Below are positions 3,664-64,000 of a stretch of DNA of 64,000 bases, piece by piece. Under the pieces are notes generated by a model, which did no database searches, had not been told where the DNA came from, and saw nothing but the letters and a program-made list of their open reading frames with translations. Numbering within the stretch: the stretch's first letter is position 1; every line of letters starts with the position of its first letter. The stretch covers positions 1 through 64,000 of the IMG/VR virus record IMGVR_UViG_3300031952_000010; one strand, 5' to 3'. The position numbers and the translations under genes were made by a program. The DNA comes from a virus.

Positions 3664-3666
3664 GGT

Positions 3667-29892: not shown

Positions 29893-29959
29893 AAACATAA
29901 ATACGCAAAAAAATAGTAATTATTTGACTTTTACTATTTTAAGAATATATTTATTTCCA

Positions 29960-30040
29960 ATGATACGAAACAGAAAAAAACGAAACTATGAAAACATTAT
30001 AATAAACGGTATTACCGTTAACAATCCCATCATTAATTGA
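29960..30040 (+). CDS. Asn-rich leader peptide (26 aa, 7 Asn)
   Basis: MIRNRKKRNYENIIINGITVNNPIIN; overlaps a terminator upstream of the AsnRS-like gene. Confidence 0.65.
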   Translation: MIRNRKKRNYENIIINGITVNNPIIN

Positions 30041-30053
30041 TGGGATTTTTTTT
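30023..30053 (+). terminator. attenuator terminator
   Basis: AATCCCATCA-ttaat-TGATGGGATT + T-run. Confidence 0.8.
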
Positions 30054-30094
30054 GCCCATACGTTAACAATAAATAAACATAAATAAAACAAAAA

Positions 30095-30922
30095 ATGAAG
30101 AACACAAAAAGTTACAATGAATTAGTACAAAAGATGAGAGGATTTTTCCTTGATAAAGGTTTTATAGAGGTACCAACCCAATCTAGATTATCAATATTAG
30201 CGGCATGTGAGAACCCACATTCAATCGCTACTTTCAACTATAATGGGGAGATTTGGCCTTTACCACAGACAGGTCAGATGTGGTTGGAGTATGAGTTACT
30301 TAAGAACCCTGAATGGGAAGGAGTATTCTGTATTTCAACATCTTATAGACAAGAAAAGAACCCAATCCATGGTAGACATGAATTAATATTCCCAATGTTT
30401 GAATTTGAATCTAAAGGTACGATGAAAGATATGGTGGAACTTGAATCAGAACTTTTGAATCACTTGGGATTTAACAAACCTGTTGAGGTAAAATATGATG
30501 ATGTTTGTGAGGAATATGGAAATGTTTCAATTTTAGAGGACGAGCATGAATCGAGAATGTGGGAAGAAAAAGGTTCGGTGATATCACTTCAAAATTTTCC
30601 ATTAAGAACAAACCCATTTTGGAACATGAAACATAATGAAAATAGTGTCTTTAATAAAGTGGATGTAATTCTTTACGGGCAAGAAACAATTGGAAGTGCG
30701 GAAAGAAGTTGTGACCCTGAAGAGATGAAACATAATTTCTACACGATTGAAGGTGGCGGTTATTCCGCCAAGTTGTTTGAACTATTTGGTAAAGATAGAG
30801 TTGAGAAAGAACTTGAAGAATTCTTATCTTTGGATTTCTTCCCAAGATTTGGTGCGGGTATTGGTTTAACAAGATTGTCAAGGGCTTGGAATTTAAATCA
30901 AGTTGAATTGGAATTTATTTAA
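30095..30922 (+). CDS. class II aaRS catalytic-core protein (Asp/Asn type, no anticodon domain); likely AsnRS-derived asparagine synthetase
   Basis: GFIEVPT motif 1, YRQE...RH..F.MFEFE motif 2, GAGIGLTRL motif 3; 275 aa. Confidence 0.75.
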   Translation: MKNTKSYNELVQKMRGFFLDKGFIEVPTQSRLSILAACENPHSIATFNYNGEIWPLPQTGQMWLEYELLKNPEWEGVFCISTSYRQEKNPIHGRHELIFPMFEFESKGTMKDMVELESELLNHLGFNKPVEVKYDDVCEEYGNVSILEDEHESRMWEEKGSVISLQNFPLRTNPFWNMKHNENSVFNKVDVILYGQETIGSAERSCDPEEMKHNFYTIEGGGYSAKLFELFGKDRVEKELEEFLSLDFFPRFGAGIGLTRLSRAWNLNQVELEFI

Positions 30923-51904: not shown

Positions 51905-52960
51905 ATGAAATTAGTAATCGTATCAACGTTTTGGAATTCCGAAAAATTTGTTTCGGATTGTATTAAATCTTTAAAAAACCAATATTACACAAATTTTGTG
52001 TCATATATGATTGATGATATGTCAACCGACAAATCATACGATGTTGCCAAAAAAGAAATTGGTGATGATGAACGTTTTATTCTTATTAAAAACACTGAAA
52101 AAAAATATAAAACTAAAAACTTTATAGATGTTATTCGTAATAACGTAAATATTGATTGGGATGATGTCATTATTGAATTGGATGGGGATGACCAATTAAA
52201 TGATAATTTTGTGTTAGGTTTAATTAATAAAACTTATACTGACCCTAATATTTGGATTTGTGGTTCTAAATGGAAAGACAAAAAAGGTGGGACTATGAAG
52301 TATGGTCGTGCAAATGCAGATAAACCTAGAAGTACATCTTGGAACTTTTCTCATATGAGAACTTATCGAGCATTTTTATTCAGAATGATAAAAGACGAAC
52401 ATTTAAGGTATAACGGGCAATATTTTAAAGCTGCGGTAGATTTAGGTATTGGGATACCTATGTTAGAAATGTCAGGTAATGAACATTATTATTTCTTAGA
52501 TGAGGTAACCTATCTTTACACATGGCACGACCATCAATCTTATTCTAAAAATAGTTCTTTTGGGGATTCTAAATTACAAGGTCTTACCGCAAAACATATA
52601 TACCAATTACCTGTTTATAAAAAATTGGTTATTGGTGACAGTGATGTTAAAACGAATGTAGTTGTTGAAAATTCTCCGACTTCTATGGACTTAATAAATA
52701 ATATATTAACGGATAAACCGTTTAACCCAAAACCATCATCACTTAATTATGATTTAATTAATCAAATTAAGAATAACAAAAATGTTTATAACCCCAAAGA
52801 AAACATTAAACCTATTAGAGAGAATACCCCGTTAGATAGGAATAAATTAGTTGAAATTAAAAAAGGTTCAATTGCTGACCAAGCAAAAAGGGCCTTCATA
52901 GAAAAACCTAGTAGACTAAATCAGACACCAAATATTTTTGGTGGTAGAAAAAGAATGTAA
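51905..52960 (+). CDS. GT2 family glycosyltransferase
   Basis: IDDMSTDKS, LDGDD. Confidence 0.85.
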   Translation: MKLVIVSTFWNSEKFVSDCIKSLKNQYYTNFVSYMIDDMSTDKSYDVAKKEIGDDERFILIKNTEKKYKTKNFIDVIRNNVNIDWDDVIIELDGDDQLNDNFVLGLINKTYTDPNIWICGSKWKDKKGGTMKYGRANADKPRSTSWNFSHMRTYRAFLFRMIKDEHLRYNGQYFKAAVDLGIGIPMLEMSGNEHYYFLDEVTYLYTWHDHQSYSKNSSFGDSKLQGLTAKHIYQLPVYKKLVIGDSDVKTNVVVENSPTSMDLINNILTDKPFNPKPSSLNYDLINQIKNNKNVYNPKENIKPIRENTPLDRNKLVEIKKGSIADQAKRAFIEKPSRLNQTPNIFGGRKRM

Positions 52961-53016
52961 CCCCACTTTGATTATTTCATAATTTATATTATCTTTGTAT
53001 CATAATTAAAAAAAAT

Positions 53017-53193
53017 ATGTGGGTAATTGTAAAAATGATGAGAAATCTTAATGGGATTATGATACCTGTTATTATTTTAAATGGACAATCTGAAATTTGG
53101 GAATTTAAAACTGAATCCGAGGCAAATGAGATGAAAAATATTTTTTCAAAAAATTCTGACTCAGGTTACGAGTACTTAATTAAGAAGATTTAA
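53017..53193 (+). CDS. small hypothetical protein (58 aa)
   Basis: read manually; downstream of TATCTTTG. Confidence 0.6.
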   Translation: MWVIVKMMRNLNGIMIPVIILNGQSEIWEFKTESEANEMKNIFSKNSDSGYEYLIKKI

Positions 53194-53198
53194 CTTAC

Positions 53199-53272
53199 GG
53201 CTCCGTAGCTCAATTGGACAGAGCAACACACTTCTAATGTGTAGGTTACTGGTTCGAGTCCAGTCGGGGTCA
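53199..53272 (+). tRNA. tRNA-Arg(UCU)
   Basis: cloverleaf; ACACA-ctTCTaa-TGTGT. Confidence 0.93.
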
Positions 53273-53286
53273 CTAAAATTTATAAT

Positions 53287-53538
53287 ATGGGAAGTTATGA
53301 CAATATATTAGAACAAGAACATAATGAGTTTGTTGAAAGCGACTTGTTTTGTTTTTACGTTCGTGAAAAAATAGAAAACTCACATTTTCATAAATACGAT
53401 GGAATTGCCCCTGAGGGATTTATATTAATTCCAGAACAAACCTTAGAAAGATTAAAAGACTTCGAAACTTGGAAGGAATGGAAGAATAATCCATCTATTT
53501 TGAAAGAAATGATGATTTATGACCTAAAAAATGAATAA
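53287..53538 (+). CDS. hypothetical protein
   Basis: ORF track. Confidence 0.65.
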   Translation: MGSYDNILEQEHNEFVESDLFCFYVREKIENSHFHKYDGIAPEGFILIPEQTLERLKDFETWKEWKNNPSILKEMMIYDLKNE

Positions 53539-53577
53539 TTGTTTTGTGGATTAGAATATAATTAGTATATTTGTGGT

Positions 53578-54294
53578 ATGAAATATTCAGCACTTAAAGA
53601 CATCGTTTATATTGGTTTGATGGTTTTAGCTATCGGAGGAACCAACGAGTATTTGGACAAATACGACTACAGTTATGACAAAGTAATGGCGTCTATCGGG
53701 TCTGAAGCAAAAAGACTTGATAAAGTTTACGGTTATGACAAGAACTACTCAAAAGAAGATGTTGTTGAGGTAACTCCTGACGTAGAACAACCATCTTCAA
53801 CTGAAGTTACTTCTGACCAAGTAATCTACATCCACGGTTTTGGTAACTACACTCAAAGTGACCTTTATACAATAAAAGAAGGTGTTGAAAACTTCTACGG
53901 TATCCGTTGTGTAATTTCTGAAAGTGTTGAGTCTGATGATTTCTACTATAACAATAACACTAACGTATTGTTAGCTTACAAAGTATTGTCATTATCTGTT
54001 GGTAAATCAAACATGAATATGTACGTAACTGACGAACCATTATGTGAAGAAAATTCTAATAATTTAATCAGTGGTCACGCAAGAATTAATTGTGATGGTT
54101 CTGTTATCAGTACTAAAGAAATGAGAAATAACAACCACTACAATAATAATAGTTTAGTTCACACTGCGGTACACGAGTTAGGTCATAACTTTGGGTTGTC
54201 TCACTGTAATAACCAATCTTGTATCATGAAATCTCACGGTTTAGATACTAAAGAGTTCTGTGATGAGTGTAAATCAAAAATTAACAAACATTAA
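53578..54294 (+). CDS. archaemetzincin-like zinc metallopeptidase
   Basis: HELGHNFGLSHC...CIM...FCDEC. Confidence 0.8.
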   Translation: MKYSALKDIVYIGLMVLAIGGTNEYLDKYDYSYDKVMASIGSEAKRLDKVYGYDKNYSKEDVVEVTPDVEQPSSTEVTSDQVIYIHGFGNYTQSDLYTIKEGVENFYGIRCVISESVESDDFYYNNNTNVLLAYKVLSLSVGKSNMNMYVTDEPLCEENSNNLISGHARINCDGSVISTKEMRNNNHYNNNSLVHTAVHELGHNFGLSHCNNQSCIMKSHGLDTKEFCDECKSKINKH

Positions 54295-54305
54295 AATAAA
54301 TAGAT

Positions 54306-54569
54306 ATGCCTGATTTTAGTGCAGAAATTGACATCGAACCATATGAATATGTTTCGGCGTGTAGTAAACGTGAAATAGTAGAACTTCTTGAGTCTTTAGT
54401 TGAGGAGGGTTACATTAGTAGAAGTGCAATCTCAGCAATTGATGCTGATAGGGATAAGAACCTTTTAGATGAAGAATGGGATGTGATAACTGATAAGTTG
54501 AATCAAAATCGACTTATGTTATCTAATGAAGAAGAAGAACTAATTAGGAAAATATCAAAAAGATTTTAA
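54306..54569 (+). CDS. hypothetical protein
   Basis: ORF track. Confidence 0.65.
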   Translation: MPDFSAEIDIEPYEYVSACSKREIVELLESLVEEGYISRSAISAIDADRDKNLLDEEWDVITDKLNQNRLMLSNEEEELIRKISKRF

Positions 54570-54574
54570 AAAAG

Positions 54575-54605
54575 TTTGACAATTGCAGAATTTTTCATAA
54601 CTTTG
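54575..54605 (+). promoter_or_regulatory. Bacteroidota-type sigma70 promoter for leader 1 / tRNA array 1
   Basis: TTTG-N19-TAACTTTG. Confidence 0.75.
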
Positions 54606-54651
54606 TAATAATTATAGAAACAGGTAGAAATACCACAACAAAAAAAAAACA

Positions 54652-54771
54652 ATGAAAACTAATAAACAACATATGGTCATTAACGTGAAATCGCAATTTA
54701 GTAATTGCTGGTATCCGCGTATTTCGCATACAAGTTCAGTTAGTTTATTAAGTGATATAATTTTTGAATAA
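54652..54771 (+). CDS. leader peptide 1 (39 aa) of tRNA array 1
   Basis: MKTNKQHMVINVKSQFSNCWYPRISHTSSVSLLSDIIFE; A-rich upstream region. Confidence 0.8.
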   Translation: MKTNKQHMVINVKSQFSNCWYPRISHTSSVSLLSDIIFE

Positions 54772-54796
54772 AAGATTAATCACACAAGATAACACG

Positions 54797-54831
54797 AATC
54801 CTGAACTCAAAAAGTTCAGGATTTTTTTTTT
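54797..54831 (+). terminator. attenuator terminator 1
   Basis: AATCCTGAACT-caaaa-AGTTCAGGATT + T-run. Confidence 0.85.
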
Positions 54832-54840
54832 GTTATAAAG

Positions 54841-54853
54841 TGTTCTTTGACAT
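54841..54853 (+). promoter_or_regulatory. boxA-like antitermination element
   Basis: TGTTCTTTGACAT; core repeated at 56810 and 60772. Confidence 0.65.
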
Positions 54854-54869
54854 ATTGGTAAAAAGTAAA

Positions 54870-54941
54870 CGGGGTGTAGTCTCGAGGAGAGACGCGTGTT
54901 TTGGGAACACGAGGCGGCAGGTTCGACTCCTGTCACCCCGA
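54870..54941 (+). tRNA. tRNA-Pro(UGG)
   Basis: CGTGT-ttTGGga-ACACG. Confidence 0.9.
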
Positions 54942-54947
54942 CTACAT

Positions 54948-55021
54948 TGTCACATAGCTCAGTTGGTTAGAGCGTTCGCCTGATACGCGAAAGGTCGATG
55001 GTTCGAGCCCATCTGTGACAA
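54948..55021 (+). tRNA. tRNA-Ile(GAU)
   Basis: TTCGC-ctGATac-GCGAA. Confidence 0.92.
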
Positions 55022-55027
55022 CTTAAT

Positions 55028-55101
55028 GACTTCGTAGCTCAGTTGGCTAGAGCACCTCACTTTTAATGAGGGAGTCCCGAGTTCGAGTCTCGGCGGGGTC
55101 A
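55028..55101 (+). tRNA. tRNA-Lys(UUU)
   Basis: CCTCA-ctTTTaa-TGAGG. Confidence 0.92.
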
Positions 55102-55107
55102 CAATAA

Positions 55108-55179
55108 GGTCGGTTGGCCGAGTGGTTTAGGCGATAGTCTGCAAAACTATCAACACAGGTTCGACTCCTGTACCGACCT
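55108..55179 (+). tRNA. tRNA-Cys(GCA)
   Basis: ATAGT-ctGCAaa-ACTAT. Confidence 0.92.
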
Positions 55180-55184
55180 CAAAT

Positions 55185-55257
55185 ACGTCTGTAGCTCAGT
55201 TGGTAGAGCATTGGTCTCCAAAACCAAGTGTCGGTGGTTCGAATCCATCCAGGCGTG
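55185..55257 (+). tRNA. tRNA-Trp(CCA)
   Basis: TTGGT-ctCCAaa-ACCAA. Confidence 0.92.
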
Positions 55258-55264
55258 CTAAAAT

Positions 55265-55350
55265 TGACGGGTTCGCGTAGTTGGCCGAACGCACCAGACT
55301 GTTAATCTGGCGAGACTTCTCCACCGTGGGTTCGAATCCCACCCCGTCAG
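55265..55350 (+). tRNA. tRNA-Asn(GUU) with long variable arm
   Basis: CCAGA-ctGTTaa-TCTGG; G73. Confidence 0.85.
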
Positions 55351-55399
55351 CAAACATTTACGAACTTTCTAATATTTATTAATATAAAATGTTAATATT

Positions 55400-55957
55400 A
55401 TGGAAAGGTATTCGGAAAAAATAATTACCTTAAGGAAAGAAGGTAAAACCTATAAAGAAATTAAAAACATTATAGGGTGTGCAATGTCAACAATATCGTA
55501 TCATTGTACATTAAATGGTTTAGGGGATAATAACCAAAAGGTAACTGAGAACGAAATCATCGAACTTCAAAAAATGTATGACGAATTTGGTTCACTTAAA
55601 AAAGTTGCTAAAATAACGGGAAGGGCTTTTGATACCGTTCAAAAATATGTTAAGACAAAACAAAAAGTTAAAACTGTAACATCTTCTGAATCAGTTATTT
55701 TATGGAGAAAAAGGACTAAAATTAAATTGATTGAATATAAAGGAGGTAAATGTGAAATTTGTGGATATGATAAATGTAATAGAGCCTTACAATTTCATCA
55801 TAAAAATCCATTAGAAAAGGATTTTTCAATATCGGGTAGAAGTTTATCATTTGACAGATTAAAAGACGAGGTTGATAAATGTATGTTAGTTTGTTCTAAT
55901 TGTCATTGTGAAATACACGATAATTTAATAACGATAAATAGGTTGATTAGGGAATGA
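55400..55957 (+). CDS. HTH + HNH homing endonuclease
   Basis: N-terminal HTH-like segments; CEICGY...LQFHH...CSNCHCEIH. Confidence 0.85.
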   Translation: MERYSEKIITLRKEGKTYKEIKNIIGCAMSTISYHCTLNGLGDNNQKVTENEIIELQKMYDEFGSLKKVAKITGRAFDTVQKYVKTKQKVKTVTSSESVILWRKRTKIKLIEYKGGKCEICGYDKCNRALQFHHKNPLEKDFSISGRSLSFDRLKDEVDKCMLVCSNCHCEIHDNLITINRLIRE

Positions 55958-56077
55958 TTGAACTGATAGTTCGAGAGTGAATACTGACTAGTACAATCGG
56001 AGTTTGCAGGTATTCACCCGAGTAATGCTAATCGTAAAAACAGATGTCCACTGAACCATCTTCTGTTTTCCTAAATT

Positions 56078-56158
56078 GGGAGTATTGAGCAACGGTTGCT
56101 CAGCGGTCTGTAAAACCGTCGCCATTTGGCATTGCAGGTTCGAATCCCGCTACTCCCA
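56078..56158 (+). tRNA. tRNA-Tyr(GUA)
   Basis: GCGGT-ctGTAaa-ACCGT; long variable arm. Confidence 0.9.
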
Positions 56159-56212
56159 CAATAAAAAAAGGGGAATAACTTCCCCTCTTTTCTTTAATTT
56201 GGTTGTTATTAA

Positions 56213-56377
56213 TTATTTTTTTTTAGAAACAATTGACCACACACCACCTGCAAGTGTAACCGCTGCTCCGATAAGTTCTTGTACTGATGAATCAGTTGCA
56301 AGACCTTTCATAATCAGGATACCACCTACGAAAGTAAGTGTGTGTCTAACGATACCTAGGATTTGTTCTTTAGTCAT
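56213..56377 (-). CDS. small two-TM holin-like protein (54 aa)
   Basis: MTKEQILGIVRHTLTFVGGILIMKG...GGVWSIVSKKK, read manually. Confidence 0.7.
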   Translation of the reverse strand: MTKEQILGIVRHTLTFVGGILIMKGLATDSSVQELIGAAVTLAGGVWSIVSKKK

Positions 56378-56433
56378 TTTAATGTTGATTAAAGGTTTAT
56401 GCCAGTCTATAAGTATCGGAGAAATAGGTAAAC

Positions 56434-56504
56434 TGTCCTTTGGTCTAATGGCAGGACACGTGGTTTTGGTCCACGCGGTGGAGGTTCGAATCCTTCAGGG
56501 ACAA
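56434..56504 (+). tRNA. tRNA-Gln(UUG)
   Basis: CGTGG-ttTTGgt-CCACG. Confidence 0.92.
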
Positions 56505-56557
56505 CAAGGGGTTCGGGGGAAACCCAATAGTGGGTGATGAGCCCACATCCTCCAAAT

Positions 56558-56626
56558 ACCGAATGGTCTGGTGACCGAAAATGGCTCATATCCGTTTTTA
56601 GAGTGGTTCGAAACCATTATTCGGTA
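56558..56626 (+). tRNA. atypical tRNA with CAU anticodon (minimal D-arm)
   Basis: ACCGAAT/ATTCGGT acceptor; AATGG-ctCATat-CCGTT. Confidence 0.6.
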
Positions 56627-56634
56627 CTTTAAAC

Positions 56635-56707
56635 AGTTCCTTAGCTCAGTTGGGAGAGCGCTTGTTTTACATGCAAGATGTCGTAGGTTCGAATCCTACA
56701 GGAACTA
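56635..56707 (+). tRNA. tRNA-Val(UAC)
   Basis: CTTGT-ttTACat-GCAAG. Confidence 0.92.
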
Positions 56708-57069
56708 CAAAAAATGTTTGGAGAATTAAATAATTTGCCGTACATTTGTAATATAGAAGTAAGGGGGGTAGGTAGTTAGTGGGTTGGTGACCTACTCCCC
56801 TGACGAAAGAGTTCTTTGAATAAAATGTTGGTGGATGGTAAGAAACGGTAAACTCGTAAAGTGCATTAACCTGTTGATATGAAATGGTGAAACGAGAGTC
56901 CATATCAGCTACTCATCACAATAAAAATATTGATAATGGTTTTCCCCATTCAACGAAGGTCGACTCTTCAGAATGGAATCGGAATTCATCACCCTTTGCT
57001 GAGGCCTCATTAAAACTCAGGAAGCAATTAAGATTGGAGCGAGACGGGTACTCCATCATTATTATACTT

Positions 57070-57142
57070 GGAACGGTAGCTCAGTTGGTAGAGCACTTGA
57101 TTGAAGCTCAAGGTGTCGGCGGTTCGAACCCGTCTCGTTCCA
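57070..57142 (+). tRNA. tRNA-Phe(GAA)
   Basis: CTTGA-ttGAAgc-TCAAG. Confidence 0.92.
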
Positions 57143-57216
57143 CGGAGTCCTGAAATAACAGGATGCCCCCACTCCCATATGGCAGCCAGTCCATTAAGCT
57201 GGTGAAGGGGGTAAAT

Positions 57217-57321
57217 AGTCAAGTGGACGTAATGCGGGATGGTCCCAAGTCCCCAACTCTAACGAGGTAAGGTAGTCTAATCCGTCTTGAACGGTATTCG
57301 GTTCGAGTCCGACCTTGATTA
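57217..57321 (+). ncRNA. tRNA-like RNA with acceptor and T arms but no canonical anticodon arm
   Basis: AGTCAAG/CTTGATT; TTCGG-TTCGAGT-CCGAC. Confidence 0.55.
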
Positions 57322-57326
57322 CAAAT

Positions 57327-57405
57327 TGCGATAATGGTGTAGGGTCGTTCTCATGAGACGATTTGGTAGATATACCCCTGTGAGGTTCGAGTCCTCAAAT
57401 CGCAA
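57327..57405 (+). tRNA. atypical CAU tRNA-like (degenerate D-arm, long variable arm)
   Basis: TCGTT-ctCATga-GACGA; TGAGG-TTCGAGT-CCTCA. Confidence 0.55.
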
Positions 57406-57415
57406 CAAATTATAT

Positions 57416-57489
57416 GGTGACTATAGCTCAGTTGGCAGAGCAAAGGTTTGTGGTACCTTGTGCCATGGGTTCGATTCCCATTAGTCACC
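57416..57489 (+). tRNA. tRNA-His(GUG)
   Basis: AAGGT-ttGTGgt-ACCTT; G-1/C73. Confidence 0.92.
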
Positions 57490-57589
57490 CAAATAGGTTG
57501 GGGTCCCTTGTAGTAACGGATTGAACTATAGTAAGTAAACTACAAGTATCTAGTAAGAAGTCACAGATGGGTTCGTGACGACCTAAATT

Positions 57590-57674
57590 GGAGGAATGGC
57601 AGAGTGGTCTATCGCACTTGTCTTGAAAACAAGCGTACCGAAAGGTACCGTAGGTTCGAATCCTACTTCCTCCG
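57590..57674 (+). tRNA. tRNA-Ser(UGA)
   Basis: CTTGT-ctTGAaa-ACAAG; long variable arm. Confidence 0.93.
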
Positions 57675-57697
57675 CAAAACAATTAGAAAAAAAACAT

Positions 57698-57901
57698 ATG
57701 ACAGACAAGTTAAAAGAGTTGTTAGAGACATCTCAAATTGGGGAACCTGAAATCGTTGATTTAATTCATTCGTATTATAAATTAGTGACCGCTGAATTAT
57801 TCACACAAGAAGAATTTGATACCGTATTAGAAAGATTAGGTATTACACAAAACGGGAACGTTTTTATTTTCAACGAGAACATAACTTATACTTTTAACTA
57901 A
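57698..57901 (+). CDS. hypothetical protein within the tRNA array
   Basis: [13 protein letters not shown]...; 3' part of the tracked ORF. Confidence 0.6.
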
Positions 57902-57904
57902 AAT

Positions 57905-57976
57905 AGTTCCTTGGTGTAATGGATAGCACTAAACACTACGGATGTTTCAGTGAGGGTTCGAGTCCTTCAGGGACTA
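57905..57976 (+). tRNA. tRNA-Arg(ACG)
   Basis: AAACA-ctACGga-TGTTT. Confidence 0.92.
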
Positions 57977-57981
57977 CTATT

Positions 57982-58066
57982 GGAAGATTGGCAGAGTGGT
58001 AATGCGGCGGTTTGCTAAACCGTAGACCTCGAAAGGGGTCCACAGGTTCGAATCCTGTATCTTCCG
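57982..58066 (+). tRNA. tRNA-Ser(GCU)
   Basis: GCGGT-ttGCTaa-ACCGT; long variable arm. Confidence 0.93.
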
Positions 58067-58111
58067 CTTATTTATAATTTTATACTATTTATTATCGAAT
58101 AATATGATATC

Positions 58112-59506
58112 ATGAGTTACAAAAAATTTTTAATAGCGGAATCCGAGAAAAAGAACATTAGAGAAATGTACGGTTTACTAACCGAACAGTATTTCAAACC
58201 ACCAAACGGTGGTGAAGGTCAAGTGGTAAATAAATATCCTGCGGGTTACTACTCCTTAAGTGGAACTGATAAGGCGGGTAACGTATATGACAATACAATC
58301 AATTTACAAAAAATTATTGACAATGCCAAAGAGTTTTTAACAACCAATAAAGGTTTTATTCCAAGAGTTGTAATAAACGCGGGAGAATCAATTATCCCTA
58401 ACTACGACACTGAAGGGGGTACTGGTGTTAAAAACTCAGGATGGTTATCTGAAAAAAGAAAAAATAAGATTTCTGAATATGTCAAAAATCAATTAAAAGA
58501 TTTAGTTAGTAAAAAATTAATATCAAAAGAACCTGAGGTTATTCTATATTTTGATGAAGCTAAAACATTAACGGTACCGTCAGGTGGTTGGGAGGGTTAT
58601 CGAACATGGAAAAGAAGTTCTGAAGCTGAAAAGGTTAATAACCCTAATAATGCCGAGTACACCAAATTAAAAACAGGATACGATAATGACCAATTCACCA
58701 AAATAAATTTTAAAATTGTTCCTGATTTAGGCCCAAACCAATGTTCATTTAATGTCAAAATTGGTGTGCATTACGATGATTTAGATATTGGTCATAGATG
58801 TAATAAGGCGAGATTCCAAATATTGGCTAATGGTGTTCCGTTAACAACTGGTGCGGGCTCAACCTGTGGAAATGGTTTATCGTATGCGGACATGAATAAC
58901 GGTGGTGGTAGTTTAGATTGTAAATCAGGCGACATTGGTGGTAAAAGAATGAATTACTTCCAACTAAATAGTAAGTCTATTGTGGACAAAATAATGGCGG
59001 CGTCTCCCGACAAAAACTCAATAAAAATATCCATGAAATGTACATCAACAGGATTTGATGATGCTTCAGGTAGATGTCACCAAGATGTACCACATATTAC
59101 GATTCATAACACTGATGGTAAACAAACGGTTAACACCTACCCTAAAGTTAACGATAAAGATTTAATTACAATTGACAAGTGCGGTAATTTAATTACAGGT
59201 GGTGGTGGTGTCGCAACAAAAAGTAAAGATGCTGGTGGTACTGCAACAACTACAGTTACTACAACAAAACCTACAGGTCAAAAATTAAATTTTGCGTCAC
59301 CAGCAACAGGAACGTTAACTTCTGACCAAGCGATTCTTAATAAAATTAGTGATGGCTCAATTAAGAAAAACGCGGATAATACTTATTCAGTATTAAAAAC
59401 ATTTAATTATAATGGTGTGTCTTATAGAATTAATGATACAATTGTTAAAATATTACCTAAAGGTAGTGTAGTAACTACGACAACGACAACTATTAAACCA
59501 AAATAA
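58112..59506 (+). CDS. leader-motif protein (KFLIAESEKKNIREMYGLLTEQ)
   Basis: N-terminus resembles 21284; Thr-rich linkers. Confidence 0.75.
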   Translation: MSYKKFLIAESEKKNIREMYGLLTEQYFKPPNGGEGQVVNKYPAGYYSLSGTDKAGNVYDNTINLQKIIDNAKEFLTTNKGFIPRVVINAGESIIPNYDTEGGTGVKNSGWLSEKRKNKISEYVKNQLKDLVSKKLISKEPEVILYFDEAKTLTVPSGGWEGYRTWKRSSEAEKVNNPNNAEYTKLKTGYDNDQFTKINFKIVPDLGPNQCSFNVKIGVHYDDLDIGHRCNKARFQILANGVPLTTGAGSTCGNGLSYADMNNGGGSLDCKSGDIGGKRMNYFQLNSKSIVDKIMAASPDKNSIKISMKCTSTGFDDASGRCHQDVPHITIHNTDGKQTVNTYPKVNDKDLITIDKCGNLITGGGGVATKSKDAGGTATTTVTTTKPTGQKLNFASPATGTLTSDQAILNKISDGSIKKNADNTYSVLKTFNYNGVSYRINDTIVKILPKGSVVTTTTTTIKPK

Positions 59507-59531
59507 AAATGGGGGTCAGTGACCCCCAATT

Positions 59532-59927
59532 CTATTCGATATTACCGTAGTAGTGGTAAGAATTTTTACCATCATCAACAATAACTGTCATTGATGTGTT
59601 ATCAACACATTGTGATGTGAAATAAGTCACAACACAGGTTTTGTTAGATTTCAATTCCACAGAGTAAAAAGAATTTACCCCAGGATTTGATTCTTTTGTA
59701 CCTGAGAATTTGTATACCATCTCAGTACCTTCACTTTTAATTACTAAAGAATCTTTACCAATTAAAACGGTTGGTGAACTTAACAATACTGAATCAACCC
59801 ATGTTGATGTACTATCAGTGATTGCGTAACCAATCTCTAAAGATTTAACTTTTACTTTATAGATGTCTTGTGATAAACAAACTAATGTTGTTAAAGACAA
59901 TAACGATGTTAGGATTAATTTTTTCAT
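59532..59927 (-). CDS. secreted protein
   Basis: signal peptide MKKLILTSLL...SQ. Confidence 0.7.
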   Translation of the reverse strand: MKKLILTSLLSLTTLVCLSQDIYKVKVKSLEIGYAITDSTSTWVDSVLLSSPTVLIGKDSLVIKSEGTEMVYKFSGTKESNPGVNSFYSVELKSNKTCVVTYFTSQCVDNTSMTVIVDDGKNSYHYYGNIE

Positions 59928-60057
59928 ACAACAAATATAACGCTCTTATTTGACTAAAACAAATTTTTTTATTATTTTCTTTCTAAAAATATTTTTTAAA
60001 AAGTTTTGGCAGTCTCAAAATTTATTGTATCTTTGTATTCACAAAAACGATATAACT

Positions 60058-60507
60058 ATGACAACTACCAACACAATCATCGACGTAACAACAGGAACAT
60101 TAGCAGGTGACGTATTCTACGGAAACTTTAAAACTCGTGTTAAAAATAAAGTAATTAATGTTATGGTTTCAAACCACTTGAAAGACATTAACAAAGAATA
60201 TGAATTCCGTATCGCAGGGAAATGTCAAGCAGGATTCATCAGTATCCACGATACTAAAGGAACCGCTGGTGAAGTTATCCGTGGATACCAAAAAAACTCT
60301 TTGGTTAATATCCAAGCAAAAAATGAGTTCGGTCATTGGATGAATGTTTACACAACTAAAGGTGGTAAATGGTACTCAATCGACAAAGGTTTCTTGGAAA
60401 CTATTACAGTTGGTACTATGAGAGAATCTTTCCCTGATATGTGCGATATGCAAATTTGGGAAAGAATGGGAGCTAAGACTTGGGCTGATAAGGCTTTCAC
60501 AAAATAA
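60058..60507 (+). CDS. hypothetical protein
   Basis: ATG downstream of TATCTTTG. Confidence 0.7.
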   Translation: MTTTNTIIDVTTGTLAGDVFYGNFKTRVKNKVINVMVSNHLKDINKEYEFRIAGKCQAGFISIHDTKGTAGEVIRGYQKNSLVNIQAKNEFGHWMNVYTTKGGKWYSIDKGFLETITVGTMRESFPDMCDMQIWERMGAKTWADKAFTK

Positions 60508-60523
60508 GAAGTTTTTACCAATA

Positions 60524-60554
60524 TTTGACTTTTTATGAAAGTCGTATATATTTA
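60524..60554 (+). promoter_or_regulatory. promoter candidate for leader 2
   Basis: TTTG-N19-TATATTTA. Confidence 0.55.
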
Positions 60555-60577
60555 ATAGAAAATACATAATACTGCAA

Positions 60578-60649
60578 ATGAAAAATTTAAATATCATACT
60601 ATTAGGCGGGACTGAGGCGGATACGTTAACTCGGACGGCGATGGTATGA
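60578..60649 (+). CDS. leader peptide 2 (23 aa) of tRNA array 2
   Basis: MKNLNIILLGGTEADTLTRTAMV with many G/C-ending codons. Confidence 0.8.
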   Translation: MKNLNIILLGGTEADTLTRTAMV

Positions 60650-60671
60650 TGTTTTGTCAACAATAACAATC

Positions 60672-60703
60672 AGAACCCATCTCCAAAAAAGATGGGTTTT
60701 TTT
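60672..60703 (+). terminator. attenuator terminator 2
   Basis: AACCCATCT-ccaaaaa-AGATGGGTT + T-run. Confidence 0.85.
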
Positions 60704-60756
60704 ATGTCTAAAAGTTGGTAATTAAATAAATTGTTGTATCTTTGTGAAACAATAAA

Positions 60757-60784
60757 GGGGATGAAACCCCGAGTTCTTTGACAT
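60757..60784 (+). promoter_or_regulatory. boxB-like hairpin + boxA-like element
   Basis: GGGG-atgaaa-CCCC then GAGTTCTTTGACAT. Confidence 0.65.
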
Positions 60785-60806
60785 GTTGGTTTGAAAAAAA
60801 AATTAA

Positions 60807-60878
60807 GGTCTATTCGTTCATCGGCTAGGATGCTACCCTGTCACGGTAGTGAGGAGGGTTCGATTCCCTCATGGACCG
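60807..60878 (+). tRNA. tRNA-Asp(GUC)
   Basis: CTACC-ctGTCac-GGTAG. Confidence 0.92.
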
Positions 60879-60889
60879 CAAACAATAAG

Positions 60890-60965
60890 GGGGGTGCATG
60901 TACCAAGGCATTGGCGATGTCGATTTGCAATCAACGTGAGGTGGGTTCGATTCCCATCATCTCCA
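60890..60965 (+). tRNA. tRNA-Ala(UGC)
   Basis: ttTGCaa loop; G3:U70 identity pair; atypical D-arm. Confidence 0.8.
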
Positions 60966-60978
60966 CACAAAAATATAT

Positions 60979-61050
60979 CGTGGGATAGAGCAGTGGTAGC
61001 TCGCAAGGCTCATAACCTTGAGGTCGGGGGTTCGAATCCCTCTCCCGCAA
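60979..61050 (+). tRNA. tRNA-Met(CAU), initiator-like
   Basis: C1xA72 mismatch; CAAGG-ctCATaa-CCTTG. Confidence 0.88.
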
Positions 61051-61059
61051 CTAATACAT

Positions 61060-61133
61060 CGTGGGTTAGACTGGAGGTGGTTCCAGCTTGGTCTCATAAG
61101 CCAAAGACGGGGGTTCGAGTCCCTCACCCGCAA
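61060..61133 (+). tRNA. tRNA-Met(CAU), second copy with C1xA72
   Basis: TTGGT-ctCATaa-GCCAA. Confidence 0.8.
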
Positions 61134-61211
61134 CAAATGTGTCTCAATTCCCTGAAGAAATTCAAAGTTGAGGTCTCGGTAGACAGAACGCGTCTGATTC
61201 TACCCAAATAC

Positions 61212-61284
61212 GCGAATATCGTATAGTGGTTTATTACTCCATCCTTCCAAGTTGGAGACGACAGTTCGATTCTGTCTATTCGCT
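61212..61284 (+). tRNA. tRNA-Gly(UCC)
   Basis: ctTCCaa loop; U73. Confidence 0.9.
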
Positions 61285-61291
61285 CAAAAAT

Positions 61292-61372
61292 GCTTAAGTG
61301 GTGGAATGGTATACACGTATGTCTTAGGAACATATGTCTTATGACGTGAGGGTTCGAGTCCCTCCTTAAGTA
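61292..61372 (+). tRNA. tRNA-Leu(UAG)
   Basis: TATGT-ctTAGga-ACATA. Confidence 0.92.
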
Positions 61373-61377
61373 CAAAA

Positions 61378-61937
61378 CCAAGGTAATGTCAGTAGGATGA
61401 GGCCGCAATCGGATTCCTTTGAACAACGCGTGAGGGGCGGCTTTCACGATGTGGCTGATAACCCGAGGTTTTAAGACCCCACGAGTAACGGAGATATCCG
61501 ACCGTTATGGAGTGTGAACCTGACTTGAAGGCTTCAAGGCTATGGGGGAGGCAACACAAACAAACACGGATTCCCCATTATGGATTAAGGGGGTAAGGGG
61601 CTTTAATTAGTCGTAATACAATCCACAAGTTGTAAGAACACTGAACAATCTTACAATACACACTCTGACTTCCGAGTGAGACTCACCACGTAACTTTGGG
61701 GGTAGGGTGAAGATGTTCTGAGGATAACACTGAACGCTGAACAGTAAAAACCATGACGCATTTGATTGGTAGAATAGGTTAAGACGGAGTGTGAAAGTAG
61801 AAACCCCCGATGGATGGTTACTAAGCTCTTTAACTCAAAAGGGATAGTCGGGAGGGATATATAAGCTTAAGGGAAACTATAAGTAAAAACTAGGTCAGTT
61901 CCGATTTAACCCCTATCGGTACGAGTGTCTGACCTTA
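61378..61937 (+). ncRNA. large structured ncRNA candidate (~560 nt)
   Basis: GC-elevated spacer between tRNAs with no tracked + strand ORF and many stems. Confidence 0.65.
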
Positions 61938-61939
61938 AT

Positions 61940-62012
61940 GCCTCCTTAGCTCAGTTGGCAGAGCACTTGTTTTGTAAACAAGATGTCGTTGGTTCGAATC
62001 CGACAGGAGGCT
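61940..62012 (+). tRNA. tRNA-Thr(UGU)
   Basis: CTTGT-ttTGTaa-ACAAG. Confidence 0.92.
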
Positions 62013-62038
62013 CAATGAGTAAGAGATACTCATCAAAT

Positions 62039-62124
62039 GCTCGGGTGGTGTAATTGGTAGCCACGCAAGACTTAAAATCTTGTGGACTGTAAGGTCCGTG
62101 CGGGTTCGATTCCCGCCCCGAGTA
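62039..62124 (+). tRNA. tRNA-Leu(UAA)
   Basis: CAAGA-ctTAAaa-TCTTG. Confidence 0.93.
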
Positions 62125-62126
62125 CT

Positions 62127-62324
62127 AAAACAAATCTTACATAAGACGGATTAGCACCGTTGAAAGGAACCTTGGCTTCACCGCGGAGTAATTACCGTAA
62201 CAGAAGTTCTAAATGCCCCAAGGTACTATGTAATGGACCCTGCTCTGATGTGCACGTCAACAGGTGATGGGGAACAAACCATCGGTCAAATCTAAACCTA
62301 CGGTGAGCGTAGAAGATTTGTTTT
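62127..62324 (+). ncRNA. structured ncRNA candidate (~200 nt)
   Basis: 12-bp closing stem AAAACAAATCTT/AAGATTTGTTTT with internal stems. Confidence 0.6.
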
Positions 62325-62329
62325 TATTT

Positions 62330-62404
62330 GGTCCCATCGTCTAACGGTTAGGACATCAGGTTTTCATCCTGAAAATCGGGGTTCGATTCCCCGTGGGACT
62401 ACCA
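62330..62404 (+). tRNA. tRNA-Glu(UUC)
   Basis: TCAGG-ttTTCat-CCTGA; encoded CCA. Confidence 0.93.
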
Positions 62405-62425
62405 AATATTCTTCATTTATATAAA

Positions 62426-62499
62426 GGACTTGTAGCTCAGTTGGTTAGAGCACCGCACTCATAATGCGTAGGTCCATGGTTCGAGTCCATGCTGGTCCA
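62426..62499 (+). tRNA. tRNA with CAU anticodon, probably Ile2 (lysidine, reads AUA)
   Basis: GG-start, TAGCTCAGTTGGTTAGAGC D-arm, ctCATaa loop; identity inferred. Confidence 0.75.
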
Positions 62500-62551
62500 C
62501 TTTTTTCAAATTATACATTGCCAGTCCAAATTTTTTTTGTATATTTGTTAT

Positions 62552-63052
62552 ATGAAAAATCAACTACCATATTGTAACACATCTGAAGCGATTAAAGGAT
62601 ATGATAATTCTCCTATTGCAAAATCCGAAACAAATGATTGTGTTGTTCGTGCGATAGCATCAGCATTTGACCTTGAATACGATAGAGCTCATAAATTTGT
62701 TGCCGACACATTTGGTCGTAAACCAAGACAAGGTACTTTTGGATTTGGTCCTGGTATGAATAAGATTGCCGAAGAAAGAACTCGTATTGGTAGAAAATGT
62801 GTCAAACCTATGGGTACTAAAGCAGAACACAGTTCTTTCCGTTCACTATCTTACGATGTTAAAGTTAAAGGAGTTAAAACTTCACGACAAATGACTGTGG
62901 GTACTTTCATTTCAAAATACCCTTTAGGTACTTATGTAGTTACAGTTAAACGTCACGCCTTCACTATTAAAGATGGTGTGGTTATCGGTAATCGTGAAGA
63001 TGCTATTCAGAAAAGAAAAATCATGTTATTGGCTTGGAGAGTTGGTTCATAA
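62552..63052 (+). CDS. conserved phage hypothetical protein
   Basis: NDCVVRAIA...HAFTIKDGVVI. Confidence 0.75.
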   Translation: MKNQLPYCNTSEAIKGYDNSPIAKSETNDCVVRAIASAFDLEYDRAHKFVADTFGRKPRQGTFGFGPGMNKIAEERTRIGRKCVKPMGTKAEHSSFRSLSYDVKVKGVKTSRQMTVGTFISKYPLGTYVVTVKRHAFTIKDGVVIGNREDAIQKRKIMLLAWRVGS

Positions 63053-63076
63053 TATATAACCCATATATTTATCAGT

Positions 63077-63664
63077 ATGTCAGATAGTATTATAAATTTC
63101 TTAAAGAAACAGGGAGATATTTTTAGTTCCGCTAAATATTTTGGTGGTATAGATAAATTACGTGAGATTGGTAAGACTAATCCTAAAATTATGGATATGA
63201 TAACTAAATCATCTTATGGTTATCTGGAATTTCAGGCGGGTGATAGGCCAAGACAAACTAAGACCTATAAATTTAATTTCTATGTATTAGATTATGATAT
63301 GGAGGACGATATGGGTGGTGGTGATTACAACCACGCTTATTTAGCAATTGACTTAATTGTTGATTACCCAAATTTAACAGATGAAGAAATTTTAAGAATT
63401 GGTCAATGGGCTGCTGAGTATTGTGAGGATGGTCGTTGTGACTATAACATTTCAAACAAAATCTTTGAAGATTCTTTGATTATGTCAGACGTTAAAAAAA
63501 TTAACGGTAAAGATGTCCCATGGGTATCAGGTTCTTTATTAAACAACCAATCAGATATCGTTCCCGATGAAGAAGTTGAAGAATTAATTAAGAAAAGCGA
63601 GAATGGTGGTACTGTTAAAGAATCCGTTATACGAATAAAAAAATTACTTAAAGTTGATTTATAG
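63077..63664 (+). CDS. hypothetical protein
   Basis: TATTTAT upstream; C-terminal VKESVIRIKKLL. Confidence 0.7.
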   Translation: MSDSIINFLKKQGDIFSSAKYFGGIDKLREIGKTNPKIMDMITKSSYGYLEFQAGDRPRQTKTYKFNFYVLDYDMEDDMGGGDYNHAYLAIDLIVDYPNLTDEEILRIGQWAAEYCEDGRCDYNISNKIFEDSLIMSDVKKINGKDVPWVSGSLLNNQSDIVPDEEVEELIKKSENGGTVKESVIRIKKLLKVDL

Positions 63665-63709
63665 ATTTATTTTTTATTTTATATTGTTTATTTTTATAAA
63701 AAAACAAAT

Positions 63710-64000
63710 ATGGGTAATAAAGTAAATGTTTTTGGGTTAGACAAATTAATTCAAAAACAATCGGCGGTAACTAAAAGTAAGATTTTAAGTCAAACCATTA
63801 TTGATGGTGTTAAAACAAAATTCATTAGACCTGTTCCTCATGAAGATGGGACATTATGTGAGATTGCCAGAGCAGATTGGGATGAAATTACTGACCCTAT
63901 TGTTCATACTCATGTAACAACAACTCAAGTAGGTAGAATTCGTGCTTGGGGATTACATCAAAATAGTACAGATAGATTATTCGTTGTTAAGGGACTTGTT
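63710..64000 (+). CDS. RmlC-like sugar epimerase / cupin (truncated by window end)
   Basis: IDGV...HEDG.LCE...GRIRAWGLHQ..TDRLFVVKG. Confidence 0.7.
   Translation, partial: MGNKVNVFGLDKLIQKQSAVTKSKILSQTIIDGVKTKFIRPVPHEDGTLCEIARADWDEITDPIVHTHVTTTQVGRIRAWGLHQNSTDRLFVVKGLV

Follow-up and report, generated by a model that had tools for sequence, protein, structure and literature searches.

Why phages carry tRNA genes is debated, the proposed reasons being codon bias, the decay of host tRNAs and evasion of anticodon nucleases, and to our knowledge essentially nothing is known about how phage tRNA genes are regulated. The locus studied here raises the question of why two phage tRNA arrays should each be headed by a short open reading frame and a transcription terminator. 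Both arrays lie in one window of 64,000 nt, positions 1 to 64,000 of the 91.5 kb IMG/VR record IMGVR_UViG_3300031952_000010. According to the original prediction, the short ORFs are leader peptides whose codons index the tRNA content of the array behind them and control it by attenuation.

The features of the two units are listed in Table 1. The predicted order of promoter, short ORF, terminator, boxA and tRNAs is correct but incomplete, as there is an extra promoter before boxA 2 and another inside array 1. Both terminators are strong intrinsic terminators and are spaced 23–24 nt from the stop codon of their leader. The two boxA copies are the only sites of the 18-mer GTTCTTTGACATRTTGGT in the 91.5 kb record, and the two units are the only combinations of a short ORF and a terminator on the + strand of the full record. 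In an Rfam scan of 52000–64000 (E ≤ 1) the sole leader-type match was Thr_leader, on the terminator, at 24 bits where the gathering score is 55; no T-box (stem I, specifier loop, T-box sequence) was found in the same scan. Another leader of the same phage is rich in Asn (7 codons out of 26) and stands, together with a terminator, 5′ of a class II aaRS-like gene; the leader ORF ends within this terminator.

Table 1. Positions of the leader units and tRNA arrays in the window.
Feature	Positions	Strand	Details
Promoter, unit 1 (Bacteroidota type)	54575–54605	+	−33 TTTG 54575–54578; −7 TAACTTTG 54598–54605; motif positions
Leader 1 ORF	54652–54771	+	ATG, 39 codons; roster codons 4–26 at 54661–54729
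Antiterminator 5′ strand, unit 1	54733–54739	+	AGTTCAG, codons 28–30; partner CTGAACT 54801–54807 in terminator 5′ arm
Intrinsic terminator 1	54796–54834	+	12-bp stem (54796–54824), 5-nt loop, T run
boxA 1	54842–54859	+	GTTCTTTGACATATTGGT; motif match
tRNA array 1	54870–58067	+	ARAGORN; Pro, Ile, Lys, Cys, Trp, Asn, Tyr, Gln, CAU, Val, Phe, CAU, His, Ser(UGA), Arg(ACG), Ser(GCU); inserted ORFs and conserved spacers between tRNAs
Internal promoter-like and boxA-like sites, array 1	56716–56837	+	TTTG 56716–56719; −7 TACATTTG 56741–56748; boxA-like from 56812
Promoter, unit 2 (distinct class)	60525–60554	+	TTGACT-N16-TATATTTA; nearly invariant 5′ of all 12 type-2 leaders
Leader 2 ORF	60578–60649	+	ATG, 23 codons; region 1 = 60589–60603; region 2 = 60637–60654
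Intrinsic terminator 2	60672–60703	+	11-bp stem (60672–60700), 7-nt loop, T run
Terminator 2 5′ arm	60677–60684		CCATCTCC; pairs with region 2 GGCGATGG 60637–60644
Canonical host-type promoter, 3′ of terminator 2	60715–60744	+	TTGG 60715–60718; −7 TATCTTTG 60737–60744; form TTG-N18-TATCTTTG
boxA 2	60773–60790	+	GTTCTTTGACATGTTGGT; motif match
tRNA array 2	60807–62500	+	ARAGORN; Asp, Ala, CAU, CAU, Gly, Leu(UAG), Thr, Leu(UAA), Glu, CAU; also ~560-nt structured spacer RNA and freshwater-1 RNA

From the sequence, we consider it likely that both units are multivalent ribosome-mediated transcription attenuators of the trp/his/ilv type, placed on tRNA genes. RNA polymerase would start at the unit promoter and a ribosome would translate the short leader. 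If all roster codons were read fast, the ribosome would reach the 3′ end of the ORF and there cover region 2 or part it from the terminator, so that the terminator hairpin would form and the polymerase would halt ahead of boxA and the tRNAs. If any roster aminoacyl-tRNA were short, the ribosome would stall 5′ of region 2, region 2 would pair with the 5′ arm of the terminator, and read-through would follow. The polymerase would then pass the rrn-type boxA, presumably loading Nus factors, and transcribe the array supplying exactly those tRNAs. The predicted outcome is negative feedback on phage tRNA supply, with one sensor per array. We infer that the leaders are translated, in which direction and how strongly the units respond, and what triggers them physiologically; candidate triggers are the loss of host tRNAs, defence nucleases and the codon demand of late genes.

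ARAGORN gives 16 tRNAs for array 1 and 10 for array 2, with the content and anticodons originally listed, and the two arrays jointly cover all 20 amino acids. In leader 1 the 23 consecutive codons 4–26 specify every one of the 14 array 1 amino acids and no other, as had been claimed; just 2 of 2,000,000 random peptides of phage composition equal this after correction for the free choice of window. Each roster codon of leader 1 is readable by an array 1 anticodon, GTC via four-way wobble only. Met in array 1 is weakly based, because both CAU calls (56558–56627 and 57320–57406) come from ARAGORN only, without an Rfam match. The claimed match of leader 2 to array 2 is looser: 477 of 2,000,000 random peptides equal it. 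The ORF also holds amino acids outside the set of array 2, namely K, N, I (ATC), R (CGG) and V, and its CGG, ATC and GTA codons are unreadable by this array. The tRNAs at 60979 and 61060 both have an initiator-like C1xA72 mismatch, and the CAU tRNA at 62426–62500 is an Ile2 candidate, within the limit that sequence does not separate Ile2, elongator Met and initiator among CAU tRNAs.

Relatives were gathered by scanning IMG/VR for the boxA 17-mer, which gave 115 viral loci; a blastn search with this region as query, run on 50,697 phage records, gave matches at the tRNA level only and no close relative. Among the scanned loci 43 terminators precede tRNAs, 40 of them with a qualifying short ORF. 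The short ORFs are conserved at this position, as originally predicted: one lies upstream of 40/42 tRNA-preceding terminators vs 22/153 other terminators (p = 3e-23), and the distance from stop codon to stem is 16–35 nt in nearly all related units. The same units are present in Cellulophaga phage phi4:1, which is cultured on C. baltica and in which such ORFs are annotated as hypothetical proteins. No leader-terminator-tRNA unit was found in 120 bacterial loci with the boxA 17-mer, a small and rrn-biased sample.

The content of the leaders follows that of the arrays in these relatives, as had been proposed, down to synonymous codons. Of 27 non-redundant leaders from IMG/VR contigs with the boxA motif, 26 hold every amino acid of their own array, whereas permuting the leaders among arrays gave 8.7 complete matches on average and 17 at most (20,000 trials); these statistics are somewhat inflated by kinship of the units. 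Amino acids served by the array occur in the leader in 197/199 cases and unserved ones in 100/181 (Mantel-Haenszel odds ratio 78, stratified by amino acid); the difference between served and unserved is 10/10 vs 1/10 for both Gln and Tyr, 10/10 vs 2/10 for Pro and 10/10 vs 3/10 for Trp. Specificity is moderate, as 55% of the amino acids unserved by an array are still found somewhere in its leader. At the codon level, 166/237 informative codons are readable by anticodons of the array, where 116.5 are expected from gene codon usage (z = 6.8). Approximately 20 unrelated leader families are seen, among which composition but not peptide sequence is conserved, and in one relative (L051) the positions of the Trp and Ser(TCG) codons are exchanged with respect to the window. 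To judge from these comparisons, leader content is conserved while the sequence changes. Most amino acids occur once per leader, where classical attenuators have runs, and sensitivity to mild tRNA shortage may be low.

The leaders could instead sense translation stress or a shortage of amino acids in a generic way: tRNA transcription would go up whenever the ribosome is slowed, and the roster would carry no information about particular tRNAs. A stalled ribosome cannot distinguish a missing from an uncharged tRNA, nearly all leaders begin with MK[NT] whatever their array, and a tRNA array of Anabaena is induced by general translational stress (PMC8421152). Such a sensor, however, would need neither the exact amino acids of its own array in each leader, nor matching synonymous codons, nor two leaders in one phage that divide the 20 amino acids as the arrays do, and we regard this reading as rather unlikely.

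Attenuation of the kind we propose calls for an antiterminator open to blocking by a ribosome that has reached the ORF end, and the one predicted is conserved and specific to its own terminator. The last 48 nt of the ORF pair with the 5′ arm of their own terminator at −11.2 kcal/mol and with the arms of other units at −6.9 kcal/mol; none of 20,000 permutations equalled the own-arm energy. The partner strand usually lies within the last 3–12 codons of the ORF, and the share of in-set codons is 75.6% upstream of it vs 55.9% downstream (p = 6e-6).

In leader 2, region 2 overlaps the final codons and the stop of the ORF. The 1:2 helix has 15+2 bp (fold z = −4.4) and is kept in the family. The 2:3 helix of the leader-2 family has 87.5% of cells paired vs 41–72% when slid, with compensatory changes (1/500 shuffles), and the 1:2 and 3:4 helices have 82.9% paired vs ~50%, counts that are lowered by two rows of the type-2 alignment being off by 1 nt at the terminator. 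The three helices are thus conserved with covariation; RNAalifold recovered the terminator only from this alignment, and the 1:2 and 2:3 helices come from explicit tests. By masked folding, the terminator 5′ arm is free when leader 2 is untranslated (0.12), is paired to region 2 at 0.52–0.59 with a stall at codons 3–15, and pairs little with a stall at codons 16–18. Masked folding also let the terminator arm pair “across” a ribosome on late codons, an outcome that we set aside as physically implausible. Unit 1 is less clear: its antiterminator has 7 bp only (z = −1.4 taken alone), and no clear anti-antiterminator (1:2 helix) was found in leader 1 by masked folding. The antiterminator pairing is lost with a ribosome on codons 25–34. 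Termination after full translation of leader 1 is a steric argument, because the stop codon lies 30 nt past region 2.

These foldings also bear on the opposite polarity, in which full translation of the leader would be required for read-through, for example by melting structure, and the arrays would be on only with plentiful tRNAs, as a feed-forward or licensing check. The antiterminator of leader 1 can re-form in masked folding with a ribosome at the stop codon, and a ribosome translating the Asn-rich leader would open the terminator in which that leader ends. In most units, however, the antiterminator strand is ~3–20 nt from the stop codon and would lie beneath a terminating ribosome, leader 2 favours the terminator both untranslated and fully translated, and roster codons are concentrated 5′ of the antiterminator strand. 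We give reversed polarity only a slim chance.

The rrn operons of Pedobacter and Niabella carry the identical boxA 17-mer in their 16S-23S spacer, where it follows the spacer tRNAs and precedes 23S rRNA; by sequence identity, the motif at the head of the arrays is the rrn-spacer boxA of Bacteroidota. Viral motif loci with a constant ARAGORN match at +1072 were considered as rrn leaders and rejected, as they are odd tRNAs and not rRNA. Upstream of the leaders, a TAnnTTTG box is found 26–87 nt 5′ of the ATG in 22/40 units. A post-terminator promoter is present at a fixed +37/38 nt in 10/12 type-2 units, and none was found between terminator and tRNAs in type-1 units. Much array output may bypass the attenuators via downstream or internal promoters, and the downstream promoters are probably a basal, attenuator-independent tRNA supply. 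One metatranscriptome contig (478 nt, 2 mismatches) extends from 60549 over leader 2 and terminator 2 and reaches the tRNAs, a faint hint of transcription across the unit; metatranscriptome contigs reveal neither 3′ ends, strand nor ribosomes. The adjacent CDS at 58344–59679 has no RNA cover in four RNA runs, and uncovered parts were not counted as evidence.

That the short ORFs are functional micro-proteins or mere remnants, with terminators that end upstream units and arrays that use their own promoters, is very improbable: promoters do lie 3′ of terminator 2 and within array 1 and the phi4:1 annotation would suit such a reading, but leader composition is kept while sequence is not, with residues swapping places among unrelated families, the roster match and the specific antiterminator pairing would be left unexplained, and the type-1 units have no promoter of their own after the terminator.

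Taken together, the roster, the relatives and the helices support the attenuation reading. One part of it needs amending, as the attenuator is not the sole gate: a conserved promoter follows terminator 2 and an internal promoter lies in array 1. We lean somewhat towards a homeostatic tRNA circuit of Bacteroidota phages, in which sensors listing up to 19 amino acids would switch on the replacing array when a listed tRNA is lost, e.g. to a host anticodon nuclease or to phage-induced decay of host tRNA. A literature search that reached a minority of subscription journals found no published description of attenuation of tRNA genes, in line with the original statement that none was known for phage tRNA arrays. 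If true, this would be the first attenuation system on tRNA genes and the most multivalent attenuator known, extending classical attenuation both to tRNA genes and to rosters with as many as 19 amino acids. Phages would gauge decoding capacity codon by codon and resupply it on demand, which would make the debate on phage tRNAs directly testable, and the units would be a natural, compact and programmable sensor of “any of N tRNAs is limiting.” Experiments are feasible because the units are present in the cultured phage phi4:1 on C. baltica.

Among known systems, the trn L-array of Anabaena sp. PCC 7120 consists of accessory tRNAs that stay silent until impaired translation induces them (PMC8421152). 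Its control is by a protein repressor, TrcR, on promoter repeats (PMC10272220), and the words attenuat-, leader and terminator are absent from the 2021 paper (PMC8421152). The Anabaena array has no codon roster, whereas the units described here have one. The boxA motif is that of Nus antitermination in the 16S-23S spacers of Bacteroidota rrn operons; here, unlike in rrn, the predicted Nus site heads phage tRNA arrays and lies 3′ of a regulated terminator. T-box riboswitches are likewise terminator/antiterminator transcription switches that report tRNA status, but a T-box binds one uncharged tRNA directly by a specifier codon and without translation, whereas these units have an ATG ORF at a fixed stop-to-terminator distance. 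The E. coli pheST attenuator, with its pheM leader, is leader-peptide attenuation of a translation-apparatus gene and senses charged tRNA, as proposed here; it is cellular, controls a synthetase and responds to one amino acid via a run of Phe codons, unlike these units. The thr (Thr and Ile), ilvGMEDA (Leu/Val/Ile), trpL, hisL, pheL and leuL leaders resemble them in having a short leader ORF with regulatory codons, followed by an intrinsic terminator, and an antiterminator that excludes this terminator and takes its 5′ strand from the ORF end; translation of the leader and read-through upon stalling, known for those leaders, are predicted here. Those leaders regulate biosynthetic enzymes by runs of one to three amino acids, whereas the phage units, found in Bacteroidota phages and followed by an rrn-type boxA after the terminator, would regulate tRNAs by rosters of 6–19 amino acids, mostly with one or two codons each.

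The full record is linear, 91.5 kb in length and has a G+C content of 32%; the window comprises its first 64 kb. All 27 tRNA genes of the record lie within 53199–62500, and 24 of them were confirmed by Rfam. The two CAU genes of array 1 received no Rfam call, and the Ala gene of array 2 was matched by the tmRNA model, which belongs to the same clan. The gene list confirms that no amino acid of the 20 is left unserved by arrays 1 and 2 together. A short ORF (leader 1 or leader 2) lies ahead of each array, with a strong intrinsic terminator 23–24 nt beyond it. After each terminator follows the 18-mer GTTCTTTGACATRTTGGT (boxA), of which there are no further copies anywhere in the record. Scanning the plus strand of the whole record for a short ORF combined with a terminator and an antiterminator yielded these two units only. 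Within array 2, the adjoining CAU tRNAs at 60979–61051 and 61060–61134 each carry the C1xA72 mismatch typical of initiator tRNA; the latter has an odd D arm and an Rfam score of just 38 bits.

Positions of the tRNA genes, leader ORFs and internal signals in the window
Feature	Position	Details
Lone tRNA	53199	Arg(UCU)
Leader 1 ORF	54652–54771	ATG start, 39 codons
tRNA array 1	54870–58067	Pro, Ile(GAU), Lys, Cys, Trp, Asn, Tyr, Gln, CAU, Val, Phe, CAU, His, Ser(UGA), Arg(ACG), Ser(GCU)
Canonical promoter, mid-array 1	56741–48	-7 box
boxA-like site, middle of array 1	from 56812	
Leader 2 ORF	60578–60649	ATG start, 23 codons
Promoter after terminator 2	60737–44	-7 box
tRNA array 2	60807–62500	Asp, Ala, CAU, CAU, Gly, Leu(UAG), Thr, Leu(UAA), Glu, CAU

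According to the original prediction, each leader indexes the tRNA content of its own array. For leader 1 this was borne out: codons 4–26 contain all 14 amino acids served by array 1 and none foreign to it. Cys, Trp, Tyr, Pro, Arg and Phe are represented by one codon each and Ser by both codon families, and the anticodons of the array are able to read 23 of the 23 codons. Among random peptides drawn at the phage's own amino acid frequencies, with the run free to fall anywhere in the peptide, 2 of 2,000,000 equalled leader 1 in length and completeness. For leader 2 the claim stood in part. A run of 11 codons covers six of seven amino acids (equalled by 477 of 2,000,000 random peptides), and its CTA, TTA and ATA codons suit Leu(UAG), Leu(UAA) and a possible lysidine tRNA, but array 2 does not serve its CGG, ATC and GTA codons, nor its MKN start.

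Covariation of leader and array content in other phages had been proposed as a check, and it was found. A motif scan of IMG/VR gave 115 loci, in about 35 of which the motif lies 23–30 nt 5′ of a tRNA array. Defining units solely by an intrinsic terminator with a tRNA ≤230 nt downstream, we obtained 43, of which 40 have an ATG ORF of ≥18 codons ending 12–45 nt ahead of the stem. Such an ORF precedes 40/42 tRNA-preceding terminators vs 22/153 terminators in general (p = 3e-23). Clustering at 60% peptide identity left 27 leaders from about 20 unrelated families. In 26 of the 27 units every array amino acid, Met left out, is found in the unit's own leader, whereas complete matches averaged 8.7 and peaked at 17 when leaders were swapped among arrays in 20,000 trials; the specificity and Jaccard overlap of the true pairs were never equalled. 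Once the influence of common residues had been removed by stratification on amino acid, served residues were present in 197/199 cases and unserved ones in 100/181 (Mantel–Haenszel odds ratio 78), as for Gln (10/10 vs 1/10), Tyr (10/10 vs 1/10) and Pro (10/10 vs 2/10). The match holds for widely differing arrays: the leader of a Pro/Asn/Asp/Ala/Tyr array abounds in N, A, P, Y and D, and the leader of a 24-tRNA array holds 18/18 of its non-Met amino acids.

The correspondence extends to codons. The anticodons of a leader's own array can read 166 of the 237 informative codons, where synonymous usage in these contigs would predict 116.5 (z = 6.8); for Arg the count is 25/26. In L051, the closest relative of the window, the Trp and Ser(TCG) codons stand in each other's place and both are retained in the leader, which points to selection on content, not on peptide sequence. 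NNG codons read by U34 tRNAs are overused in the leaders of the 27 units (92/215 vs 42 expected, z = 8.6), an excess of G-ending codons that occurs in AT-rich genomes. Either a sensitivity to wobble decoding or simply the demands of RNA structure may lie behind this excess.

Leader ORFs of all families carry, within their 3′ part, a copy of the terminator 3′ arm and are therefore able to pair with the terminator 5′ arm. These duplexes average -11.2 kcal/mol within a unit vs -6.9 kcal/mol with foreign arms, a difference equalled by 0 of 20,000 permutations. The antiterminator strand (region 2) lies mostly in the last 3–12 codons and would be masked by a ribosome that has reached the stop codon. 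Roster codons, those for amino acids served by the unit's own array, make up 75.6% of codons upstream of this strand vs 55.9% downstream (p = 6e-6). Among 11 sequences of the leader 2 family, 87.5% of cells in the antiterminator are paired vs 41–72% in slid controls. Covariation in this helix is three-way (GATGG/CCATC, GAGGG/CCCTC, GAAGG/CCTTC), a result that 1 of 500 shuffles attained, and for the helix of regions 1 and 2 plus the terminator 82.9% of cells are paired vs about 50%.

We also folded the nascent leader 2 RNA with the ribosome represented as a 28-nt mask. In the untranslated RNA, region 2 is sequestered by region 1 (an upstream strand) and the terminator arm stays free (upstream pairing 0.12). 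When the ribosome occupies codons 3–15 the arm is bound to region 2 (0.52–0.59), and when it occupies codons 16–18 region 2 is masked (0.18–0.39). These are the three states of a classical attenuator. The picture for leader 1 is less neat: its antiterminator has 7 bp, with the stop codon 30 nt beyond region 2, and masked folding revealed no anti-antiterminator in this leader. All the computational tests that could be run favour the attenuator reading, and we consider it likely that ribosome stalling induces read-through.

The boxA 17-mer is widespread among Bacteroidota genomes. In Pedobacter and Niabella it follows the spacer tRNAs and precedes 23S rRNA, where the spacer boxA classically lies, and this agreement in identity and position supports the boxA label of the original prediction. 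Placed after the terminator, it would limit modification to polymerases that have already read through.

The predicted order of promoter, ORF, terminator, boxA and tRNAs was found, but additional promoters lie past terminator 2 and inside array 1. Type-1 units, such as unit 1, have a canonical Bacteroidota promoter (TTTG ... TAnnTTTG) 26–87 nt 5′ of the leader ATG and no canonical promoter past the terminator. Type-2 units, the family of leader 2, have a distinct pre-leader promoter, TTGAC[A/T]-N16-18-TATATTTA, and in 10/12 of them a canonical promoter at a fixed +37/38 nt past the terminator. Attenuation is therefore probably one of two inputs, the other probably being a basal or differently timed promoter. 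The TTGAC[A/T] promoter (60525–60554 and 29924–29953 in the window) is nearly invariant before 12/12 type-2 leaders and a further, Asn-rich leader. It is unlike the canonical TTTG/TAnnTTTG promoters of neighbouring genes and may belong to a separate temporal or sigma class.

Four metatranscriptome runs, available as contigs only, cover parts of the region. One contig of 478 nt (60549–61026, 2 mismatches) covers leader 2 with its terminator, the internal promoter and boxA, and reaches into the first tRNAs. In all four runs cover is absent from the CDS at 58344–59679, which argues against plain DNA carry-over, and the contig gives a weak hint of read-through RNA.

The Asn leader (promoter, leader and downstream gene together at 29924–30922) has 26 codons, seven of them Asn (p = 8e-4), and runs into a terminator at 30023–30053. 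Its promoter (TTGACT-N17-TATATTTA) is of the same class as that of leader 2, and downstream lies a 275-aa protein with a class II (D/K/N) aaRS core (Pfam PF00152, E = 3e-14). It is a putative single-amino-acid attenuator, and beside the two tRNA units it makes leader-peptide control seem a habit of this phage.

The leader–terminator device also precedes tRNA blocks of a cultured phage, Cellulophaga phage phi4:1, whose host is Cellulophaga baltica (NC_021788.1; about 86.97–87.2 kb and 87.95–88.17 kb, corresponding to 2700–2840 and 3634–3815 of the stretch L238). Its first unit has a TAnnTTTG promoter and a 22-codon leader with an 11-codon run solely of Q, R, L, H, E and P, followed by a terminator and Pro, Glu, Gln, His, Leu, Leu and Arg(ACG) tRNAs. 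The second leader, annotated as hypothetical protein gp075 and probably using a non-ATG start, lists T, K, G, I, V, D, A, R(AGA) and Y ahead of Ala, Lys, Ile, Gly, Met, Asp, Thr, Val, Arg(UCU), Met and Tyr. In the same phage gp076, before Ser, Asn, Trp and Phe, holds 4/4 of these amino acids and lacks a clear terminator.

The arrays carry other elements as well. The ~560-nt spacer between tRNA-Leu(UAG) and tRNA-Thr (61374–61939) has 45% G+C in the 32% genome. Its core of ~370 nt is 79–96% identical on at least nine other viral contigs, and the consensus fold has 94 pairs, 14 with compensatory changes. It matches no Rfam family, and in metatranscriptome contigs, where it abounds, its depth reaches 190; probably it is a new large structured RNA freed from the tRNA transcript. 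A freshwater-1 RNA (RF02979, 84 bits, E = 6.5e-19) lies at 62229–62290 between tRNA-Leu(UAA) and tRNA-Glu, and the spacer flanking it is kept on four other contigs. Five further spacers (55958–56077, 56709–57069, 57144–57319, 57491–57589 and 61135–61211) have a raised G+C content (38–51%) and are conserved across several unrelated viral contigs, suggesting more small RNAs or processing elements. Inside array 1, at 55263–55936, lies an ORF (55400–55957) whose product combines an HTH domain with an HNH-like Cys/His tail. In RNA-library contigs from two runs, 55262 and 55937 are linked by 74 different nucleotides, so that the insert is absent from related strains, as expected of a mobile homing-endonuclease gene.

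A T-box riboswitch was ruled out by the Rfam scan of 52000–64000 at E ≤ 1. No description of attenuated tRNA genes turned up in full-text literature searches. The nearest published concept found is the stress-induced tRNA array of Anabaena, which is governed at the promoter by the repressor TrcR and has no leader or terminator (PMC8421152; PMC10272220).

Ribosome-mediated attenuation is a textbook class of mechanism, and the thr and ilvGMEDA leaders are multivalent like those of the phage units. What is new in the phage units, and sets them apart from known attenuators, is that tRNA genes are the target, that the roster is so broad and that the setting is a phage.
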